A DNA stretch of 16,108 bases from Candidatus Sumerlaeales bacterium (GTDB lineage: Bacteria; Sumerlaeota; Sumerlaeia; Sumerlaeales; Sumerlaeaceae). The notes below the pieces were generated by a model that did not search any database, was not told the DNA's origin, and saw nothing but the letters and a program-made list of their open reading frames with translations. Made by a program: the position numbers and the translations under genes. This document shows positions 5,135 to 14,300 of the stretch, piece after piece. Every line of letters starts with the position of its first letter. The first letter of the stretch is position 1. Location of the stretch: the NCBI GenBank assembly GCA_038243585.1, contig JBBSQY010000063.1, forward strand, positions 1-16,108. The letters are read 5' to 3'.

Positions 5135-6663
5135 AAAGCGACGGCGATTTGGTCAAAAAAGGTGAGAACATTGTTGTCATTGATACGGAAAAGGCCAGCC
5201 AGGATCTGCCCGCCGACGTAAGCGGTCGCTTGCGGATTACGGTGAAAGAAGGCACCGATGTCAAAATTGGCGCTGTTATCGGCCATATTGAAGACGATGC
5301 CGCGGGTGATTCTGCGCCAGACAAAACCGCGGTGCCCGCTGCGAAATCTGAGTCCTCCGAACCTCTGCAAAAATCCTCTTCCAACACAAATAACGCTTCT
5401 GTTGCCCAGGCACAATCGTCCTCTCCCTCCGCCGCGCAAACGTCCGGTAAATCTTATGATATCGTTGTGCCATCTGCCGGCGAATCCATCAGCGAAGGTA
5501 CCATCGCCCAGTGGGTTAAAAAAGACGGCGACCACGTTGTAAAGGGCGAAGATATTGTCGTCATTGACACGGAAAAAGCGTCTAGTGATTGTCAGGCAGA
5601 GCATTCCGGCATTTTGAGAACCCTTGCCGCGACCGGCGAAGACGTGAAAATTGGTCAGGTTATCGGGCGCATCGAGGCGACCGATGAGGCGACCGATGAC
5701 GGGAGAAAGGCGGAGGAATCAAAACAGGCCCTTCATATCGCCTCTCCGACTCCACAACCTGGAACTAGTCAGCCTCCCGACCAGGTGCCAGCTGCCGAAG
5801 CGCGGGACGCTGAAATGGAAAATCGCCCCCCGATTGCTCCGGAAAAAGGGGAAAACCGAGCCGATCCTGAAAAGGTCGCGGACGCGAACAGATCAGCAGC
5901 CTCAACCAAACCGTCAGCCGCCCCAGCCCAGCCCGCTCGTGCGTCCGCAACCAATGACGGGGATCAGCGCGTAACCCGTGAACCGATGACCCGCATGCGC
6001 CGCACTATCGCCGCACATCTGCTAAAGGCAAAACAGGAAACTGCTATGCTGACCACCTTCAGTGAGGTGGATATGTCGGCTATTATGGCAATGCGGAAAA
6101 AGCACGGCGAAGCCTTCCTAAAGCGCCACGGCATAAAACTGGGCTTTATGAGCTTCTTCATTCAGGCATGCGCGGATGGTCTTCAACGCTTTCCCCTGGT
6201 TAATGCGTCGCTGGATGGTAACGATATCGAGTATCACCACTACGTAAATATGGCCATAGCCGTAAGCACGGAGCGCGGTCTGGCGGTTCCGGTTATCCGT
6301 AACGCGGATGCAATGAGCTTCGCAGAAATTGAATCCGCTTTGATGGGCCTCGCCCAAAAGGCCAAAACTGGACGTATACCTCTGGAAGATTTAAAGGGCG
6401 GTACGTTTACCATCACCAACGGCGGCGTGTTCGGCAGTATGATGTCCACTCCGCTGATCAATCCACCGCAGGTGGCCATTCTCGGAATGCACTCCATTGA
6501 CCAGAGAGCTGTCGTGATCGACGGCAAGGTGGAAGTGCGACCCATGATGTATCTGGCTCTCAGCTACGATCACCGTCTCATCGATGGCAAAGAAGCCGTT
6601 CAGTTCCTCGCCCACGTAAAAGACAGAATAGCAGCTCCGGAACGGTTGCTTATCGGGTTGTAG
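5065..6663 (+). CDS. sucB: Dihydrolipoyllysine-residue succinyltransferase (E2o) with two lipoyl domains
   Basis: Two N-terminal lipoyl domains ([12 protein letters not shown]...[16 protein letters not shown]...TEKA), Ala/Pro/Ser linkers, catalytic domain ([50 protein letters not shown]). SD-like GGTGA upstream of ATG 5065; follows sucA. Confidence 0.97.
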
Positions 6664-6884
6664 GTTTATGACAGGTAACGCTTGAGATTGCAATCTTGCC
6701 ACCCTTGTTATCTTAAAGCAGCCCAATTAATATTATTAGTGCATTTACTTTACGGCTCCAAATGGATACCGTGACCGTAGTTACTACGCCCATTTTGACG
6801 ACCTTGCTCGATGCCTTCCAGCATGAAATAGGTAAGTAGATGGCTTTGATTGGCAGATGGTAAACCAAGTCTCCGCTCAGCACA

Positions 6885-7050
6885 TCGTAGTGCGGAGTAC
6901 CCCGGTTGGGCACGTTTACGTCGGCGCCCGCCTTTACAAGTTCTTCTACTAGAGCGGTGGGTAACGAGTTGTGAAGAGCGGTATTACCATCTTATCCCGT
7001 CTGGAAACTAGATCGGGTGCAAACTTTACTATAGTTCTGCAATACTTTTC
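6885..7050 (-). pseudogene. Degenerate ankyrin-repeat gene fragment
   Basis: My translation of the minus strand gives ...TIVKFAPDLVSRRDK, then after a 1-nt frameshift near 6992 DGNTALHNSLPTALVEELVKAGADVNVPNRGTPHY. This fits the ankyrin consensus D-x-x-G-x-T-A/P-L-H...L-L-x-x-G-A-D-V-N. Boundaries are approximate. Confidence 0.65.
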
Positions 7051-7070
7051 GTCACACAGGCTATCGCTCA

Positions 7071-9872
7071 CTACATCCCTTCAAGCATCTTTTTTGAAGT
7101 CTTTTTCCGTAGGGGTTCCACACCCGCAAGCAGGGGCGACAGCATTGCTTCGTATCGGCCTAGCAGGTGCTCCGCCCGGTGGCGGTCGTCGGTGAAGGGT
7201 TTTGGATTGTAGAGTTTGTCGACGGCGAGGTCCAGGGTTTGGTGTGCTTTTCTGAGCACCGGCGGCATGGCCGTTAGGTCGTAGAGATCGGCGAGGGTGG
7301 AGTCGGGGAACCGGGCACGGGCGTCGAGAACTTTTTTTGCGTGGGCGTCCAGCCTGAGCTTTTGCGCGTCGGTGATGTCGGGAAGCGGGAACGTGTTGTA
7401 GACGATTCCGATGGTGTATCGGTAGTCGCTTTTAAGTCGGCCTCCTATTGTCCGAAGCCACGCCATGTGCATACGGGAGGTCAAAAGAGCGAACAGCCAT
7501 GGGGAGGCATTGGGAAGAACTTGCAGGAGATCACTGGGCACTACCGGCGGGTCCAAATAGGCTATTGGGGCATACTCGCGTCTTTCTGAGCTTACTTTTG
7601 GGACTGCTAAAAATGAAGCGGTCGGCAATACATTAACATGGAAGCGAGTGGGTGAATCTGATATTGCTTGAGTCGGTGAGCTCCTACTTTTCGATCGGTA
7701 TTCCCGGACACGCTTCAGCCTTTCCATCACATATGGCATAGCTCTGAGCTCCGCAGGAGTTGCGTCTTGTAAGGCAAGGATATAGCGGACGCTTCCATTG
7801 ATCAGTTCGTAAGCACCAACATAGGGACGTAAATAGATTTCAGCCTTCGGCTCGAGGATAAGAAATGCTGCGCGTTCTTCCTCCGAAAATATCAGATGTC
7901 CGCCGTCAATAGGTTTCGATCCGATGATCAACTGGGGTAATTCATTTATTGGGCGGGCCTCTTCACGCACCACAATATGCGGGTCGTTCAGATTACCAGC
8001 GTCGATCAGGTACGGGGACAGCTTCGCGTGGGTCGACTCGACCGGGTCACCCTTGATGTCGGGATAGGTGAAGAGCCGCTTTACCTTCGGCTCATCTTCC
8101 CGGCGGGAAAGGCCAAGGACCACCACATGGACATGAGCCATGCCCCGGGCGTCGCTGCCCCAGGCGAAGGTGCGGTGGCCATAGGCTATTTCCAGGTCAC
8201 ACCGGTTGAACATAAGCGGCCACAGCTGAGCCACCTGTTCACCTTGAATAATGGAGTTCGTGGCCACGAAACCGATTCGCGGAATGCCCCCTCGCGCGAA
8301 CTCTCCGGCTTTTATAAACCAGGCAGTCACGTAGTCCAGCGTTCCCCCGGTTTTGCCCAGGTCGGCAATGCGGCGGACCTGTCCGCGTTGCAGTTCCGAC
8401 TGGTATTTCGCGCCGATAAACGGTGGATTTCCGAAGACATAATTGCACTCATCCGCCGGCAGCACCGCGTTCCAGTCCATCTCCAGCGCGTCCGCGTGGT
8501 GAATACGTGGCGAAGTTTTAAGGGGGATGCGAAGAAAGACTTCTCCGAAGTGGAGAGAGATTTTATTATTGGCGATGTGGTCAGTCATCCACATGGCAAC
8601 CTCGGCGATACGGGCGGGGAACTCGCCGATCTCTATGCCATAGAACTGATCGACGTTCGTCTGCACCAGCCACATCTGATTTTCATCGGTGCCCCTGGTC
8701 AGTTCGATTAGCACCTGCAATTCCAGCTCACGCAGTTCCCGGTAGGCGATGATCAGGAAATTTCCGCAGCCGCAGGCCGGGTCGAAAAACTTGAGACTGG
8801 CCAGTTTGTTCTGAAACGTGAGAAGCGCCTCCCGGCGGTTCTTGGTTCCCCGCCTCTTCAGTCTCCCGAATTCCGCCCGAAGTTCATCCAGGAACAACGG
8901 TTCGATGACCTTGAGAATGTTCTTCTCCGTGGTGTAATGCGCCCCCTGTTTGCGCCGTTCTTTTTCGTCCAACACGCTTTGGAAAAGCGCTCCGAAAATA
9001 GCCGGAGAAATTTTGCTCCAGTTGAACCGGCACGCCAAAAGCAGTTGCCGGCGCATGACCTCCGTAAACGCGGGCACCCGCAGCCGCTCGGCGAACAAAT
9101 CGCCGTTGAGAAACGGAAACGCCTTCAGGTCTTCGTCCAGGCTGGTCTGGCGCTCATCCTCCGGCTGGTTAAGCACGTCGAACAGCATAGCAAGCCACTG
9201 GCCCACGTCCGCCCCGTCTTCCGAGGTGCGCTGTTCGATCAAATCCGTGAAAATGTCGCGGGGTTCGAAGATGCCGGTGTCATCCGCGAAGAGACAAAAC
9301 AGCAGGCGCACCAGCAGCCGTTCCAAATCGTGGCCCAGATAGCCCGACGCTTTTAAAGCATCATGCAGATGGCCCATGAGTTCCGACGCTTCGATGTTGG
9401 CCGGGTCCTGATCGCGGAATACCCGTTTTTCGATGCCGAGAATGAAACCAAAGTGTTCAACGTTAGCGGATAGTTCCGAAAGCGGAAACCGGACCTCCGT
9501 GCCCAGCTCCAGATCATAAAGCTCGAAGGTCTGGAAGTCCGACAACAGCAGATAGCGCGGCAGTTCAGCATCTTTGAGGCCCGGAAAGTAGTCGAACGCC
9601 TGGGTTTTGGCGGGAACCAGCTTGCGCCCGGCGCTCTTTTGCTCGACAAGCAGCACGCCCTTCCAGAACATATCAAGGTAACCGCGCCTGCCTTCCGACA
9701 GGTTTTTCACCGGGTGCTCAAACGTGGCGACCTTCCGGCGCCGGACGCCGAACACCTGGAAGAAGTCATTATAGAAGCTCTGGGTTTCGCCCCGTTCATA
9801 ATGGGCGTCGCGCCATTCTTCTGCTAAGCGCGATGCGTTCGCGCGTATTTGGTTCCAGCTTAAGCGGCTCAT
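7071..9872 (-). CDS. MmeI-like Type IIL restriction-modification enzyme (fused endonuclease, N6-adenine methyltransferase and target-recognition domain; YeeA-like)
   Basis: 933 aa. N-terminal PD-(D/E)xK-like nuclease (ERGETQSFYNDFFQVFG...GYLDMFWKGVLLVEQKS), RLLFCLFADDTGIF, ISPAIFGALFQ, GAHYT, motif I FFDPACGCGNFL, motif IV GNPPF, TNSIIQGEQV, GGRLKSDYRY, and C-terminal TLADLY...MPPVLRKAH..LD.AVDKLY, all typical of the MmeI family. Confidence 0.93.
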   Translation of the reverse strand: MSRLSWNQIRANASRLAEEWRDAHYERGETQSFYNDFFQVFGVRRRKVATFEHPVKNLSEGRRGYLDMFWKGVLLVEQKSAGRKLVPAKTQAFDYFPGLKDAELPRYLLLSDFQTFELYDLELGTEVRFPLSELSANVEHFGFILGIEKRVFRDQDPANIEASELMGHLHDALKASGYLGHDLERLLVRLLFCLFADDTGIFEPRDIFTDLIEQRTSEDGADVGQWLAMLFDVLNQPEDERQTSLDEDLKAFPFLNGDLFAERLRVPAFTEVMRRQLLLACRFNWSKISPAIFGALFQSVLDEKERRKQGAHYTTEKNILKVIEPLFLDELRAEFGRLKRRGTKNRREALLTFQNKLASLKFFDPACGCGNFLIIAYRELRELELQVLIELTRGTDENQMWLVQTNVDQFYGIEIGEFPARIAEVAMWMTDHIANNKISLHFGEVFLRIPLKTSPRIHHADALEMDWNAVLPADECNYVFGNPPFIGAKYQSELQRGQVRRIADLGKTGGTLDYVTAWFIKAGEFARGGIPRIGFVATNSIIQGEQVAQLWPLMFNRCDLEIAYGHRTFAWGSDARGMAHVHVVVLGLSRREDEPKVKRLFTYPDIKGDPVESTHAKLSPYLIDAGNLNDPHIVVREEARPINELPQLIIGSKPIDGGHLIFSEEERAAFLILEPKAEIYLRPYVGAYELINGSVRYILALQDATPAELRAMPYVMERLKRVREYRSKSRSSPTQAISDSPTRFHVNVLPTASFLAVPKVSSERREYAPIAYLDPPVVPSDLLQVLPNASPWLFALLTSRMHMAWLRTIGGRLKSDYRYTIGIVYNTFPLPDITDAQKLRLDAHAKKVLDARARFPDSTLADLYDLTAMPPVLRKAHQTLDLAVDKLYNPKPFTDDRHRAEHLLGRYEAMLSPLLAGVEPLRKKTSKKMLEGM

Positions 9873-9894
9873 GATCTCATTTCATTTGGCAGGC

Positions 9895-10006
9895 GGCGGC
9901 TTAGAGGTGACACATTCCCTCTGCGCGTCCACATACAAAAAATTTCAAATGCCGTAGTGTCTTGCTGTCAAGCACCGTAGTCTTACCGGGAATGTGTCTT
10001 GCCGCC
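9895..10006. repeat. Inverted-repeat-bounded intergenic element with internal direct repeats and a TTGACA hexamer
   Basis: GACACATTCCC (9909-9919) and GGGAATGTGTC (9988-9998) form a perfect 11-bp inverted repeat. Outer GGCGGC (9895-9900) pairs with GCCGCC (10001-10006). Direct repeats GTGTCTTGC (9957, 9994) and CCGTAGT (9952, 9975). Minus-strand TTGACA at 9966-9971. Confidence 0.6.
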
Positions 10007-10020
10007 CCGGAGCAGTTGCA

Positions 10021-12864
10021 TCAAATTCGTTGAGATTCAGGTTGTATCTGCGAAGACACAAATGGCCCGCTTGTGCCTGTCCTTGCTTGTGGCTTAATGC
10101 ACACCCGCTCAAGTTTTAGGTTCATTCGCAGCCCGTAACGCGGATCGGTTACAATGGCTGTGTCTGCCAGTTCTTTCGTTGCTGCCTTGCCTAGTTCGCG
10201 GGTTAGCGTGCTTTTGTGGGCGCTGATCTGTTGTGGTTCCACCTTTTCTCCCGGCCATACGATTTCGTCGATAGACAGATAAGTCACCGTGTTTCCACAC
10301 CTCTCCGCGAGCAGGCAGAGAAGTGCATAAGGTTTCGGTGGCAGGCGCAGACGCCTGCCGTAAAAAATTACGCAACCGGGGTCGGCAGAGTTCAGGATCA
10401 GGTCATACCGGTCTACGCGCCTGCTGACGGCGTTCGCCAGATTTTCCGTGTTGGGTTCATCTGCGGCTCCCGCCGGTGGCTCCTGCGTCTCACATTTAAT
10501 CGATGATGGTGGCGCGTTACTCAGGCGCATTTCGTCATCTTTCGTTGATGCCCTTTTGTCGTTGTGATCTTTCAGACGTTCCGATAGGCGCTGCCTTAGA
10601 AAATCAGGCAGCAGATTTTTCAGATCGTGTTCACCCGCGGCTTTCAGGGCTGCCATGGAATCATAGCCATCGGCCGCGAGACGATTTAAAAACGTGCGCG
10701 ATAAACCAGAAACCTGCAACTGGGACAACCGCGCGGCCCGTTGCGTAAGCCCCTGGGGCAACCGCCCCGCCAGCCGCCTGATCGCGTTTCCCACCTCCTC
10801 CGGACACTGCGCCGCCGCGGCGCATGACGCCAACCCGCCGACCAGCCACGCCAGGTGCGCCGCCAAAGCCGCAACTGTTCCGGCGACCACGCGAAACTGC
10901 TCCTCCACCTCAGCGGTTGATTTTTTCGAAACCCATTCCCCCGCAATTACAGCCATTTTCAGCGCCCCGTGGCCGGCCAGAGCCAGACCGCCGGCCGGCT
11001 CCATCAGCCGCCGCAGCTCGTCGCTCCGTAGCTCTCCGCCACGATCCATACGTTCCCGCGCGGCCCGCAGCCAAAGATTGCTCTTCATTTCCGCCGCCGT
11101 GGCGGACAAAGCAAAAGCTTCTCCGTCCGCCGTGAATGCGCATAAGCATAGTATCTCAAAATCGGCCGGCGTCCTCGTTCTCCAGGCGCTGCAGAAGCTC
11201 ATCATTTCCCGAATGGTTTCCGCGCGAAATCCGCCTGCCGCCATGGCCTGTCCAGATCCGGTCAGGCGCAACCGATGCCCCCCGCTCTCGTCGATCAGTT
11301 GCAGATCAAGAAGCCCCCTAATACACTCGCCCAGCCGGTCTTCCAGCGCGCGATCCGCCGTGACCGCCCCGGAATGCCACGCGAAGGTATGGGCCAGCGC
11401 GGCGTGGATTCCGGAATAGCTGTCGGCGAGGCCGGAATGAACGCATTCGAGGACAAAATGATCCATGCTGTGATCGGTAAACGCTCGCGACACACTCTCC
11501 GGCTGAGCCTGAACGTAAGCGCGAGACAGCCGCGCCGCCTCGAGATGACTGCCAGCAATGAGGATACTTCGGCCAAACGGCTCGCCTGCCCCAAGCCGAC
11601 CAGCGCGCCCGGCCTGATTACGGTATCGGCTCACGCTCAGCGGCGCCTGCGCCGCCCGCTGCGTGTTGCCACTGCCATGACCACGCAACATGATGGGGAT
11701 TTGAATCACGTTTTTCGCCCGCAGATTGACCCCCTGCGCCAGCGTGGGCGTTGCCACCAGCACACGGATGCTGCCCGCTTCGAAAGACTTTTCCACCATC
11801 GACCGCAACTCCGCAGTCAGTTCGGAATTGTGAAACGCGACCCCCGCCGGCATACACTCCAGCAGCTGGCGCCGGACGAGTGAATCCTCTGCCAGGCGCA
11901 GTTCATCCCACATCGGGCTACTCACTTCGTCAGCCTGAACGCCCATCTCCGACGCCACAGCTATACAAAGCTGACGGCTCAGGGCCCGGGTGGGCACAAA
12001 CAACAGACAATTCTCACCCGCCAGCGCCAGGGCAGTACAAAGTTCCACTATTCCCGCAGAACAATCGCCGTCACCGTCATTGCCCGCAGCAGTTTGCCGG
12101 TCCCGGATGTCGGCCGGCAGCAGCTCATCGGTCCATTCCCGTTGGGCCGCCGTCCGATAATGAAACGCGTTATGCTCTCTGCAATAGATTCCTTCGCGCA
12201 ACTCCGCGGGGCGCACTGTCGACATCAGCAGTTCCGCGTCCAGCCAGGCGGCGAGTGTGTCTCCATTCTCCACTACCGCTGATAGCCCCACCACCTGAAC
12301 GCGAGGCTCCGCCCTGGTCAGTCGCGTCAGCAGCAGGTCCGCAGTTTCACCCCGTTCCTGATCGCCCAAAATCTGCAACTCATCTGCCACCGCGACCCCC
12401 ATGGAAAATATCATGTCCGGGCACGAGACCAGAAACGCACGTAGCTTTTCGTAAACCATGACGGCAAAATCGTAATCGCCGCGCCGGATGGCGGCGTCGT
12501 GACGGGTGTAATCGGCGGTCGCCATCGCCACGCGAATTCCCAATGGGGCATAACGGCTTTCGAGATGCCGAAACTGCTCAGCCACCAGCGCACGGGTAGG
12601 ACAAAGAAAGACCGCTTTGCGACCCGCCTGCCAGTGGCGCACCGCCGCCATTTCGCCGACGAACGTTTTACCGGCAGAGGTGGGCGCCAGCGCCAGAACG
12701 TTCGAGCCGCGCAGAAGTCCCGTGCGCATTACCGCATCCACCTGTAGCGGCATAAGCTGCACGACGCCGGAGTTTACCCAGCAGGCAATGACTTCAGGTT
12801 CAAATCCATAAGCGGCCAGATGCCCCGCCGGCAGAGGATCGCGAGTAAGTGAGTAAGTGTTCAT
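10021..12864 (-). CDS. Hel308/Ski2-like SF2 helicase with helix-hairpin-helix region and C-terminal OmpR/PhoB-type winged-helix DNA-binding domain
   Basis: Q motif LMPLQ, motif I APTSAGKT, Ia PTRAL, Ib VYEKL, II VADELQ, III LSA, IV LLFVPTR, V VATPTLAQGVNL, VI QAGRAGR. Hel308-like C-terminal domains (EWVSKKSTAEVEEQFRV.AG...AWL; RLPQGL; LQVSGLSR..LNRL..DGY). Terminal segment LRLPPKPYALLCLLAERCGNTVTYLSIDEIVWPGE...ISAHKSTLTRELG...IVTDPRYGLRM resembles Trans_reg_C. Confidence 0.85.
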   Translation of the reverse strand: MNTYSLTRDPLPAGHLAAYGFEPEVIACWVNSGVVQLMPLQVDAVMRTGLLRGSNVLALAPTSAGKTFVGEMAAVRHWQAGRKAVFLCPTRALVAEQFRHLESRYAPLGIRVAMATADYTRHDAAIRRGDYDFAVMVYEKLRAFLVSCPDMIFSMGVAVADELQILGDQERGETADLLLTRLTRAEPRVQVVGLSAVVENGDTLAAWLDAELLMSTVRPAELREGIYCREHNAFHYRTAAQREWTDELLPADIRDRQTAAGNDGDGDCSAGIVELCTALALAGENCLLFVPTRALSRQLCIAVASEMGVQADEVSSPMWDELRLAEDSLVRRQLLECMPAGVAFHNSELTAELRSMVEKSFEAGSIRVLVATPTLAQGVNLRAKNVIQIPIMLRGHGSGNTQRAAQAPLSVSRYRNQAGRAGRLGAGEPFGRSILIAGSHLEAARLSRAYVQAQPESVSRAFTDHSMDHFVLECVHSGLADSYSGIHAALAHTFAWHSGAVTADRALEDRLGECIRGLLDLQLIDESGGHRLRLTGSGQAMAAGGFRAETIREMMSFCSAWRTRTPADFEILCLCAFTADGEAFALSATAAEMKSNLWLRAARERMDRGGELRSDELRRLMEPAGGLALAGHGALKMAVIAGEWVSKKSTAEVEEQFRVVAGTVAALAAHLAWLVGGLASCAAAAQCPEEVGNAIRRLAGRLPQGLTQRAARLSQLQVSGLSRTFLNRLAADGYDSMAALKAAGEHDLKNLLPDFLRQRLSERLKDHNDKRASTKDDEMRLSNAPPSSIKCETQEPPAGAADEPNTENLANAVSRRVDRYDLILNSADPGCVIFYGRRLRLPPKPYALLCLLAERCGNTVTYLSIDEIVWPGEKVEPQQISAHKSTLTRELGKAATKELADTAIVTDPRYGLRMNLKLERVCIKPQARTGTSGPFVSSQIQPESQRI

Positions 12865-12871
12865 GCGTAGT

Positions 12872-12901
12872 GGAATACGAGATAATGAACCGGGCTGTCA
12901 A
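12872..12901 (-). promoter_or_regulatory. Putative sigma70-type promoter of the helicase, possibly leaderless
   Basis: Perfect -35 TTGACA (12901-12896), 18-nt spacer, weak -10 TATTCC (12877-12872), then 7 nt before the ATG at 12864. No SD visible. Confidence 0.45.
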
Positions 12902-12908
12902 CTAAAAC

Positions 12909-12924
12909 TAGAACAAATGTTCTA
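12909..12924. promoter_or_regulatory. Putative LexA (SOS/Cheo-type) operator
   Basis: TAGAAC-AAAT-GTTCTA has perfectly complementary 6-bp arms. Its core matches the Gram-positive-type SOS box GAAC-RNRY-GTTC. It sits 7 bp upstream of the -35 of a DNA helicase gene. Confidence 0.7.
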
Positions 12925-12960
12925 CAAATTAACCCCTAAGGCGTCTAGCCAGAGCCTGAA

Positions 12961-13135
12961 TGAAGTAGCATAGGCGTCCCGCCTGTGTAGGCTTATTGCG
13001 GGAAGTTAATACAGTTCCCCCGTGGAACGTCTTGTTGTACTACGTCAAAATGCATCTGGAGAAATACTTTGCACAGGCGGGACGCCTATGCTACTTCAAT
13101 AGCTTGCGCGGACACAGGCGGGACGCCTATGCTAC
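12961..13135. repeat. Cluster of three GTAG-family REP-like palindromic repeats (REPIN/BIME-like)
   Basis: 23-mer GTAGCATAGGCGTCCCGCCTGTG at 12965-12987 (+), with exact reverse-complement copies at 13072-13094 and 13113-13135. Copies 1 and 2 extend to a 27-bp perfect inverted repeat (12961-12987/13072-13098). Each unit is GTAG plus hairpin CATAGGCG-TCC-CGCCTGTG. Confidence 0.85.
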
Positions 13136-13167
13136 CTCAGCTGTCTATGCTATCTTTCAGGATAGGC

Positions 13168-13404
13168 CTACCGCCGCGTGGCGCGACGGTTTATCGGGGG
13201 CGGTTCAGGACTTTCTCTCGTGATCGTGGCGCCGATAGCATCGTTCAGCTGCGATTCCAGCTCCTCGGCTTTCAGCTTATACTGCGTTGCCCGAGACGCA
13301 AATAGAATCACCCCTCCAATCAGGAGCGCGTTAAACAGCAACAGCCAGACAACGAGATCCGTAAGGCCTTGGATCAGTGGTATCTTTGTAAGATAATCGT
13401 TCAT
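13168..13404 (-). CDS. Small hypothetical single-pass membrane protein, 78 aa
   Basis: ATGA overlap with the yicC stop codon. One hydrophobic helix (LVVWLLLFNALLIGGVILFA), a short coiled-coil-like segment (YKLKAEELESQLNDAI) and a Pro/Arg tail. Confidence 0.65.
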   Translation of the reverse strand: MNDYLTKIPLIQGLTDLVVWLLLFNALLIGGVILFASRATQYKLKAEELESQLNDAIGATITRESPEPPPINRRATRR

Positions 13405-14300
13405 TCCAGATTCTGCACCTGTTCCCGGATTTTCTCAATCTCGCTCTTCATCGATACTATGCGCGACGCTACCGCTACGCCGCGTGCCTTGTTGCCAATT
13501 GTGTTGGTTTCGCGCAGAAGCTCCTGCACAAGAAAATCCATGGATTTGCCTACCGGCTCGCCGGAATCACGGTTCGCCATCGCGCGAAACGATTTCAGAT
13601 GAGCGTCCAGCCGCACGAGCTCTTCCGTAATGTCGCTCTTGTCCGCAAAAAGCATGATCTCAGTTTCCACCCGCACCGGATCCATTGCCGCGTCCAGGGT
13701 CTTGCCGAGGAGTTCGATTCGATCTTTCAGGCGCTTGCGATACTCTTCAAGCAGAACATCCTTAACCTGCTCCACCTCGCCTCGGAAGGCGGATAGGTTA
13801 TCCAGGTGTTCGTTAATGGCGTCTACCAGTTCGCGTCCTTCGGTCTGGCGGGCCTGTTCCAACGCGTTTACGGCCTCATGCACGGCAGTAATGACCAGCT
13901 GGGTAAGAGGGCCATCTTCCGCAGCGACAGTGCCGGGGCTGACGACTCCGGGAAGCTGCAGCAGCGCGCCAAGGTCTATATTGTCTGCGCCGGCGGAATC
14001 AACCCCTGCCAGGGCGGCCTTTACCTGGGCAGCGTAATGGCGCAGCGCCGTCGGGTTGATATTATATAGCGCCTGAGCTTCCTCAGCAGGGACAAAACGG
14101 ATAAACATATCCACCTTGCCTCGACGCAGCCGGCGCTTGACCTCGTCGCGGATGCGCGGCTCGATGGAGTTAAGCTCTCTGGGCAGCCGCACAGAAAAAT
14201 CGAGAAACCGGTTGTTGACCGATTTTACATCAATGGAAATTTCGCCAAACGCCGGATCGGAGGTGATTGCCGATCCGAATCCTGTCATACTTTTTATCAT
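13401..14300 (-). CDS. yicC: YicC/YloC family endoribonuclease
   Basis: MIKSMTGFG start, KSVNNRFLD, RRGKVD, ARQTEG, ADKSDITEELVRLDAH, GKSMDFLVQELLRETNTIGNK, EIEKIREQVQNLE end; 299 aa; GAGGT SD-like sequence upstream. Confidence 0.95.
   Translation of the reverse strand: MIKSMTGFGSAITSDPAFGEISIDVKSVNNRFLDFSVRLPRELNSIEPRIRDEVKRRLRRGKVDMFIRFVPAEEAQALYNINPTALRHYAAQVKAALAGVDSAGADNIDLGALLQLPGVVSPGTVAAEDGPLTQLVITAVHEAVNALEQARQTEGRELVDAINEHLDNLSAFRGEVEQVKDVLLEEYRKRLKDRIELLGKTLDAAMDPVRVETEIMLFADKSDITEELVRLDAHLKSFRAMANRDSGEPVGKSMDFLVQELLRETNTIGNKARGVAVASRIVSMKSEIEKIREQVQNLE

Follow-up and report, generated by a model that had tools for sequence, protein, structure and literature searches.

Research on the helicases Hel308, HELQ and Pol theta has centred on archaea and animals, where they are seen as enzymes of fork repair and annealing, and has usually passed over bacteria. 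The gene described here is bacterial. It lies on the minus strand of a 16,108-nucleotide contig from a Candidatus Sumerlaeales bacterium (JBBSQY010000063.1, assembly GCA_038243585.1; this whole stretch of DNA is called the window below) and encodes a protein of 947 amino acids (10021..12864, an intact open reading frame (ORF) with its stop codon at 10021-10023) in which a Hel308-like helicase is followed by a C-terminal OmpR-type winged helix-turn-helix (wHTH) domain. The available sections of a 2026 review (PMC13623763) describe a five-domain Hel308 without an OmpR-type wHTH, and the words "fusion" and "Hachiman" do not occur in those sections. A first-pass annotation of the window had stated that no characterised protein of this architecture was known. 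In agreement, a literature search outside subscription journals found no publication joining Hel308 or a Ski2-like helicase with OmpR, or Hel308 with Trans_reg_C, nor any on a bacterial Hel308. Papers mentioning Hel308 and LexA together concerned the spliceosome, and those mentioning Trans_reg_C and a helicase were unrelated by title. Judged by the searches presented below, Hel308 with an OmpR-type wHTH is a large, stable and widespread bacterial family and no one-off. The gene is most likely a damage-induced repair helicase and not a gene regulator.

The Hel308 body

The window protein has an intact ATPase core and a complete five-domain Hel308 body. RecA-like domain 1 (residues ~25-215, 12220..12792; this and all following parts of the protein are on the minus strand) holds the Pfam DEAD match (residues 50-199, E 2e-22), the Walker A sequence APTSAGKT (60-67) and motif II, which translates as DELQ (161-164, 12373-12384). 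RecA-like domain 2 (residues ~216-455, 11500..12219) was delimited from a structural model together with the Pfam Helicase_C match (334-425) and motif VI, QAGRAGR. Domain 3, an internal winged helix (residues ~456-547, 11224..11499), was recognised from the secondary structure of the model and its superposition on Hel308/Hjm, and its limits were placed by eye on the model. The ratchet, domain 4 (residues ~548-708, 10741..11223), is marked by the archaeal helicase domain 4 profile (Helicase_dom4_arc, residues 633-705, E 3.4e-5, below the Pfam threshold), by W644 and W673, and by Foldseek. Domain 5, a helix-hairpin-helix (HhH; residues ~709-776, 10537..10740), is defined by model helices at 711-781, by the alignment with full Hel308 chains and by an invariant R723. 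The first-pass annotation had placed an HhH at about 10600-10740, which falls within these limits.

The full-length AlphaFold2 model was calculated with a mean predicted local distance difference test score (pLDDT) of 87.7 and a predicted template modelling score (pTM) of 0.81. Residues 1-5, 262-265, 397-400, 777-817 and 928-947 have a pLDDT below 50. A Foldseek search of the model against the PDB returned the archaeal Hel308/Hjm structures 9b15, 2va8, 2zj8, 2zj5 and 2p6r as the top matches (E 5e-41 to 4e-37), with a TM-score on the target (TMt) of 0.82-0.87 over about 760 aligned columns, that is, over whole chains. The helicase domain of Pol theta came second (9bh6, 5aga and 5a9j; E 1e-37 to 1e-38, TMt 0.74-0.81) and Brr2 third (E 1e-25 to 1e-27). 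The complete Hel308 architecture read in the first-pass annotation, comprising two RecA folds, a winged helix, a ratchet and an HhH, is thus upheld by the model and by these full-chain alignments.

Conservation was assessed in an alignment of the window protein with 70 homologues. Among the 71 sequences, T62, S63, G65 and K66 of Walker A, D161 and E162 of motif II, and G419, R420 and R423 of motif VI are invariant. Outside the ATPase core, W644 and R723 are invariant and W673 is conserved in at least 90%, as is Q164 of motif II.

The NCBIfam models of archaeal Hel308 type span residues 24-778 (E 5e-97); however, their equivalog cut-offs are missed (215.7 vs 1200 bits and 325.9 vs 887 bits for models NF040935 and NF002654). 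On these profile scores, the helicase is a distant bacterial branch and no equivalog of the archaeal enzyme. It shares with archaeal Hel308/Hjm (2p6r, 2va8, 2zj2/2zj8 and 9b15) the five-domain body, the ATPase motifs and the NCBIfam alignment across the body. It differs from them in its bacterial host, in an identity of only about 22-24% in structural alignments, in the DELQ motif, in the additional linker and wHTH, and in its predicted control by LexA. The domain order is also that of the metazoan Pol theta helicase domain and of HELQ, both of which act on DNA damage; however, the window protein lacks a polymerase domain and the N-terminal HELQ extension, and its wHTH has no counterpart in either.

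The OmpR-type domain and the protein family

The helicase body is followed by a charged linker (residues 777-817, 10414..10536) that is predicted to be disordered (pLDDT 30-54 in the full-length model), the OmpR/PhoB-type wHTH (residues 818-927, 10084..10413), and a disordered, unconserved C-terminal tail (residues 928-947, 10024..10083, pLDDT about 34). Both a charged flexible linker and an extra domain of Trans_reg_C type at about 10105-10400 had been noticed in the first-pass annotation, and both are recovered here. The family was examined in an alignment of 35 sequences, composed of the C-terminal regions of 34 family loci and window positions 10024-10467; four of the 38 tblastn-positive loci were left out for broken frames. 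In this alignment the linker is weakly conserved in sequence and differs in length between family members.

The assignment of the wHTH is supported by profile comparison, the Pfam model PF00486 (Trans_reg_C), structure prediction, Foldseek and the pattern of substitution. Within the whole window protein, PF00486 scores 17.4 bits at residues 836-897 against a gathering score of 26.2; PF00486 is matched by all 35 aligned family members at E<=0.01 (best 2.8e-14). The family profile matched 67 PDB sequences at E<=1, the best being ArlR (E 2.3e-12), and the names among the best 60 of these 67 are all DNA-binding response regulators or transcriptional regulators of CadC/ToxR/PhoB type. An AlphaFold2 model of the domain has a pLDDT above 94 across model residues 21-125 and consists of a three-stranded N-terminal sheet, three helices and a C-terminal hairpin wing. 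Foldseek returned 41 matches to this model at E<=1e-3, and those listed are all of OmpR/PhoB type: CadC (5ju7), BaeR, ToxR (8b4b), RpaA, ArlR, PhoB (1gxq) and CovR (TMt 0.82). The C-terminal region therefore models as an OmpR-type wHTH, the outcome that the first-pass annotation had anticipated for this check.

The fold and topology are those of the OmpR/PhoB-family domains (PF00486; ArlR, PhoB, CadC, ToxR and CovR). Unlike them, the wHTH is joined to a helicase and not to a receiver, a membrane sensor or a SARP/BTAD module, and a short additional helix (897-903) separates helix 3 from the wing. The domain also forms a distinct subtype. No receiver domain (Response_reg) or other sensor domain was matched by Pfam in the 947-residue protein, in which residues 1-776 are the helicase.

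Among the 35 wHTH sequences, E876 and Q879 are found in all, position 878 is Q or N in 30, position 883 is H or Q in 35 and position 884 is K or R in 33. V875 is present in 31, and the wing glycine G911 in 35. In the larger alignment of 71 sequences, W870 is conserved in at least 90%. We take the conserved positions of the recognition helix and wing to include positions that contact DNA in the PhoB-DNA structure. The median isoelectric point of the domain is 8.7. When the window is compared with C94, a second contig of the same genome bin, the ratio of nonsynonymous to synonymous substitution rates (dN/dS) in the wHTH is about 0.03; since the synonymous rate (dS) of about 2 is saturated, this value is a rough sign of constraint only. 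That these residues hardly vary across phyla argues for one common ligand and against lineage-specific promoters; the ligand may be duplex DNA in general, a conserved DNA site or a conserved protein.

The release of a free wHTH from an internal start was also considered and is unsupported. The in-frame ATG at residue 779 of the window protein has no Shine-Dalgarno sequence, and a start codon with a Shine-Dalgarno sequence occurs in the linker of only 3 of 34 loci. A search for shorter proteins with residues 815-930 gave two matches, both helicase fragments with domain 4, and no clear free-standing form was seen. The new proteins among the best 150 cluster matches of the wHTH profile include 64 shorter than 520 amino acids, 51 of which begin with methionine, and many of the 64 contain pieces of domains 3-5. 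From these pieces, we read the short matches as probable helicase fragments.

The combination of helicase and wHTH is common. A word-indexed protein search scored 8000 proteins, of which 1524 matched at E<=1e-3. Among the best 120 listed, with the query included, 106 keep the wHTH by its profile, and the domain ends a median of 4 residues from the C-terminus; so an architecture for which no paper was found is that of a large family. By hand count, a precomputed PF00486 label is carried by about 57 of the 119 homologues that remain when the query is excluded. The 14 without the wHTH comprise seven short or partial sequences and seven of about 900 amino acids with a different, unannotated tail (six of these seven were scanned with Pfam). 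Against 1.84 billion cluster representatives at 50% identity, the wHTH profile had 55,255 matches at E<=1e-3, 717 at E<=1e-10 and 71 at E<=1e-30. At these thresholds, the 55,255 are taken as the OmpR family at large and the 717 as the distinct wHTH subtype. Among the best 150 cluster matches, the full-length proteins of about 760-1080 amino acids carry the wHTH C-terminally. Three long proteins, P0157 (1500 amino acids), P0158 (6306) and P0179 (718), contain 10, 6 and 5 separate matches to the subtype, respectively, which suggests very long proteins with OmpR-type domains arrayed in tandem.

Eighty family loci were gathered by an alignment-based scan. Their record titles name Sumerlaeota/BRC1, Hydrogenedentota, Nitrospirales, Manganitrophus, Armatimonadota and others, with the assignment of members to Nitrospirota resting on bin labels. 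For relatives from Binatia, Polyangia and deltaproteobacteria, the match ends at about residue 750. Within the class of the window's genome, the helicase was matched in 33 of 41 genomes (26 of the 32 of high quality), mostly as one full-length copy each, with an identity of 50% within the genus and about 36% across the class.

Predicted LexA operators

In Escherichia coli, DinG, UvrD and RuvAB are SOS-inducible helicases with a LexA operator at the promoter, presumably serving at damaged forks. The window gene may share this regulatory logic, while these enzymes belong to unrelated helicase families and none is known to have an OmpR-type domain. About 45 nt upstream of the helicase ATG lies a predicted LexA operator, the perfect 16-bp palindrome TAGAACAAATGTTCTA (12909..12924, assigned to neither strand). 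On the coding strand, the promoter reads ...TAGAACATTTGTTCTAgttttagTTGACA..., and a TTGACA hexamer at 12897-12902 (minus strand) adjoins the palindrome. The counterpart ahead of the genome's own lexA is GTAGAACAGTCGTTCTAA, 44 nt upstream of that gene.

The extended form AGAAC-N4-GTTCT occurs nine times in this genome, of which about 91% is coding by a crude ORF call, and eight of the nine copies are intergenic. Seven of these eight stand 2-72 nt upstream of a called gene; for the remaining one, no called gene was found within 300 nt. Besides the helicase, the genes with this site upstream are lexA itself (C42:1975-2652, with LexA_DNA_bind and Peptidase_S24 domains; TIGR00498, 191 bits), a Pol IV-like Y-family polymerase (C2:32907-34118), a TIGR03916 "DNA modification/repair" radical-SAM gene (C5:62972-64222), a PA0069-family radical-SAM gene (C28:207-1295), a YihY/BrkB gene (C13:1168-2091) and an unannotated 74-amino acid ORF at a contig end. 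This set resembles an SOS regulon, and it is predicted that the helicase belongs to it.

The predicted operators of relatives are of two types. The first, GAAC-N4-GTTC, was found in the 300 nt that precede the helicase at 7 of 93 distinct loci, whereas 48 of 4622 background windows (1.0%) contain it. One of these seven loci is from the same genus (L001), two are from the same family (L094 and L096) and four are from Armatimonadota. The lexA gene of a relative, genome G009, carries TAGAACGCAAGTTCTA, and the lexA promoters of Armatimonadota have the one-mismatch form TCGAAC-N4-GTTTGC in 4 of 4 cases and the exact box in 0 of 4. The second type, CTGA-N8-TCAG, precedes the helicase in 26 of 92 loci, compared with 56 of 5171 background windows (1.1%). 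In loci labelled Hydrogenedentota or Nitrospirota, it lies between TTGACA and the -10 region, and the lexA genes carry the same box in all five genomes with these labels that were tested. By these motif matches, two operator types, each agreeing with the LexA-box type of its own lineage, precede orthologues in three lineages. Such lineage-matched operators are comparative evidence for a role in DNA damage that is independent of any single genome.

One family member sits on a contig labelled Candidatus Bathyarchaeia (L062) and is preceded by a LexA box of the bacterial CTGA-N8-TCAG type; misbinning of this contig is probable.

Function and competing explanations

The protein is probably, with a fair margin left for doubt, a DNA-damage-inducible Ski2-like SF2 helicase of the Hel308/Hjm branch in which the wHTH serves as an extra handle for duplex DNA. 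LexA would repress the gene and DNA damage would induce it, the binding of LexA being suggested by motif sharing. By analogy to characterised Hel308 enzymes, the helicase body may load on single-stranded DNA (ssDNA) at stalled or broken forks and translocate 3'->5'. The tethered wHTH would then grip the adjacent duplex as an anchoring or targeting handle, much as may be supposed from the winged helices of PriA and RecQ, and would not act as a promoter-specific transcription factor. We favour an auxiliary DNA handle over a transcription factor because the contact residues are constant, the tether is flexible and there is no adjacent target gene. The protein would be a natural example of a repair motor that has put a transcription-factor fold to new use, and a bacterial branch would make Hel308 function testable in bacterial genetic systems.

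A role as a general replacement for RecQ or RecG is at odds with their coexistence with the helicase. RecQ is present alongside the helicase in the window's genome and no complementary pattern is seen across the 41 relatives. RecG is found in all five Hydrogenedentota- or Nitrospirota-labelled genomes that also have the helicase. RecG is near-universal in bacteria. No match reaching the TIGR00643 cut-off for RecG was obtained in the 41 Sumerlaeia genomes, where the best matches to the model are Mfd-like ORFs of about 1170 amino acids; the next-best in the window's genome is a PriA-matching ORF. The Sumerlaeia thus seem to do without RecG, and one may ask which of their enzymes remodels forks.

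Several observations weigh against a damage-induced repair helicase with a DNA-binding handle. Archaeal Hel308 has DExH as motif II, and the window protein has DELQ in its place. The helicase was not matched in 8 of the 41 class genomes, one of them a same-genus genome that is 95% complete, from which it follows that the helicase is dispensable; an identity of only 50% within the genus is also fast evolution for a core repair enzyme. When taken alone, the window wHTH reaches 21.2 bits against PF00486 (E 3e-4), which is still under the gathering score, and the net charge of its recognition helix and wing is only +1. The shorter box GAAC-N4-GTTC is not over-represented as a whole in the window's genome (49 copies vs ~52 expected, 12 of the 49 intergenic), leaving the case to rest on the extended AGAAC..GTTCT and on location. 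Finally, among the 45 loci that carry the wHTH and whose upstream region could be judged, 23 show neither box pattern, and most other Sumerlaeia are among these 23. Either SOS control does not extend to the whole family, then, or the operators of these loci differ.

Of the other explanations, a sequence-directed helicase or one-component regulator is unlikely. The wHTH would bind a defined motif and either deliver the motor to it or act as a transcription factor that depends on the helicase sensing ssDNA or ATP. The domain has a true OmpR/PhoB-type fold, in a family overwhelmingly composed of sequence-specific activators, it is held on a flexible tether, and its conserved, exposed recognition-helix residues would fit one conserved target sequence. 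However, neither a conserved neighbouring target gene nor a divergent promoter was found in 30 loci or in 20 relatives, there is no receiver or other sensor domain, and the contact positions are near-invariant across four or more phyla, a pattern unlike that of regulators adapted to the promoters of each lineage. As a predicted target of LexA, the gene looks more like a repair effector. The one-component regulator with a helicase as its sensor, proposed in the first-pass annotation, therefore finds no support. Its companion proposal of a helicase targeted to DNA by the extra module may still hold, with the evidence directing it to a DNA-damage context that had been missed. There is a similarly small chance that the wHTH reads one DNA sequence or structure conserved across phyla, so that a motor made upon damage would be steered to defined sites, or a second-tier SOS transcription factor would be gated by engagement of the helicase with ssDNA. 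If true, fork repair and site-specific DNA recognition would be directly coupled, which is undescribed for the Hel308, HELQ and Pol theta helicases. More doubtful again is a wHTH whose protein surface docks on RNA polymerase and recruits the helicase to transcription complexes that have stalled, similarly to Mfd, UvrD or HelD. OmpR-family activators touch sigma or the alpha-CTD, and in PhoB and OmpR the contact with RNA polymerase is made by the loop that joins helices 2 and 3; both the fold and the strong conservation just before helix 3 (W870, V875 and E876) would suit such a surface. The conserved positions run on, however, along the recognition helix and into the wing at G911, as for a contact with DNA.

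The best structural and profile matches of the protein are the DNA helicases Hel308/Hjm and Pol theta, it has the Hel308-type HhH domain 5, and the SOS operator predicted for its gene also precedes lexA and a translesion polymerase gene. All three make it very improbable that it is a Ski2-type RNA helicase in RNA surveillance or decay, even though Ski2-like helicases include RNA enzymes, Brr2 is among the structural matches, and the DExQ form of motif II is that of the Pfam model DEXQc_Suv3, which has a sub-threshold match to the helicase. Equally hard to credit is a function in phage defence, either together with the MmeI-type enzyme encoded next to the helicase or as a Hachiman-like HamB helicase. 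The adjacency is real: a complete type IIG enzyme of the MmeI family is encoded on the same strand, 148 nt downstream of the helicase, and C94 keeps the helicase-MmeI order. The PADLOC profiles for Hachiman HamB, SngC and BrxHI also match the SF2 helicase core that these proteins have in common with the window protein (best HamB E 1.7e-36). Yet the matches are restricted to residues ~35-430, those of HamB to the generic core at 35-423, no HamA-like (DUF1837) neighbour was recognised, and there is no defence-island setting in relatives. The upstream 78-amino acid ORF, YicC and ROK have no Pfam or PADLOC defence match. Furthermore, MmeI occurs in 0 of 80 family loci by tblastn, is unclustered in the neighbourhoods of 20 relatives and is absent downstream of the helicase end in the same-genus genome G001. 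The neighbours elsewhere are housekeeping genes, the MmeI gene has a promoter-like sequence of its own, and the LexA operator fits repair.

Genomic setting

The helicase gene stands alone on the chromosome, usually as a single copy, and is common within its class. The window corresponds to contig C63 of a genome of 3.43 Mb that is 89.7% complete with a contamination of 3.6%. A search of sequencing runs listed no RNA data set containing this stretch. Its neighbours VWA, SucA, SucB, YicC, ROK and M55 were, like MmeI, found in 0 of 80 family loci, and no conserved partner gene was found in 30 family loci or in the neighbourhoods of 20 relatives. Sixty-four flanking genes examined by Pfam include FeoB, AhpC, glycosyltransferases, kinases, POR subunits, NusA, type II secretion ATPases and similar functions. 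Synteny around the helicase is confined to one genus and one family.

The MmeI-type IIG restriction-modification gene (7071-9872, minus strand) lies between sucB and the helicase. It encodes a complete protein of 933 amino acids with all five MmeI Pfam domains, a PADLOC REase_MTase_IIG score of 1145 bits and, by eye, the D..EQK and NPPF motifs. The 148-nt gap contains a promoter-like TTGACA-N18-TGAAAT for MmeI, also identified by eye; a promoter scan of 9800-13450 found two candidates, not above the 1.5 expected in shuffled sequences, and a terminator scan of the same region found none in the gap on the coding strand. The MmeI gene is treated as a local insertion particular to the species and not as a partner of the helicase.

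Outside the window, the helicase-MmeI pair was seen only on C94 (4136 bases). This contig is collinear with window positions 6580-10385 at 79-84% nucleotide identity and covers the end of SucB, MmeI (87% amino acid identity) and the C-terminus of the helicase (90%). It probably represents a second, related population in the same metagenome-assembled genome. The dS between C94 and the window is about 0.68 for MmeI and about 2 for the wHTH piece, which hints at different histories.

Upstream of the helicase, a 78-amino acid ORF (13168-13404, minus strand) contains a hydrophobic stretch and has no Pfam match; its ATG overlaps the stop codon of yicC (ATGA). A 23-nt element is present in three copies, two direct and one inverted (12965-12987, 13072-13094 and 13113-13135), between a small ORF and the helicase promoter. 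No Rfam match was obtained in the window. Genome-wide, the element has 93 copies with at most three mismatches, 82 of them intergenic, and is therefore a REP-like dispersed repeat.

In six loci labelled Hydrogenedentota or Nitrospirota (L010, L017, L018, L026, L029 and L033), a gene for a protein of about 690 amino acids comes directly after the helicase on the same strand. The sole member scanned, that of L018 (L018:12653-14710, plus strand), is a type I phosphodiesterase/nucleotide pyrophosphatase (PF01663). In these loci, the helicase and the ~690-amino acid protein may form an SOS operon.

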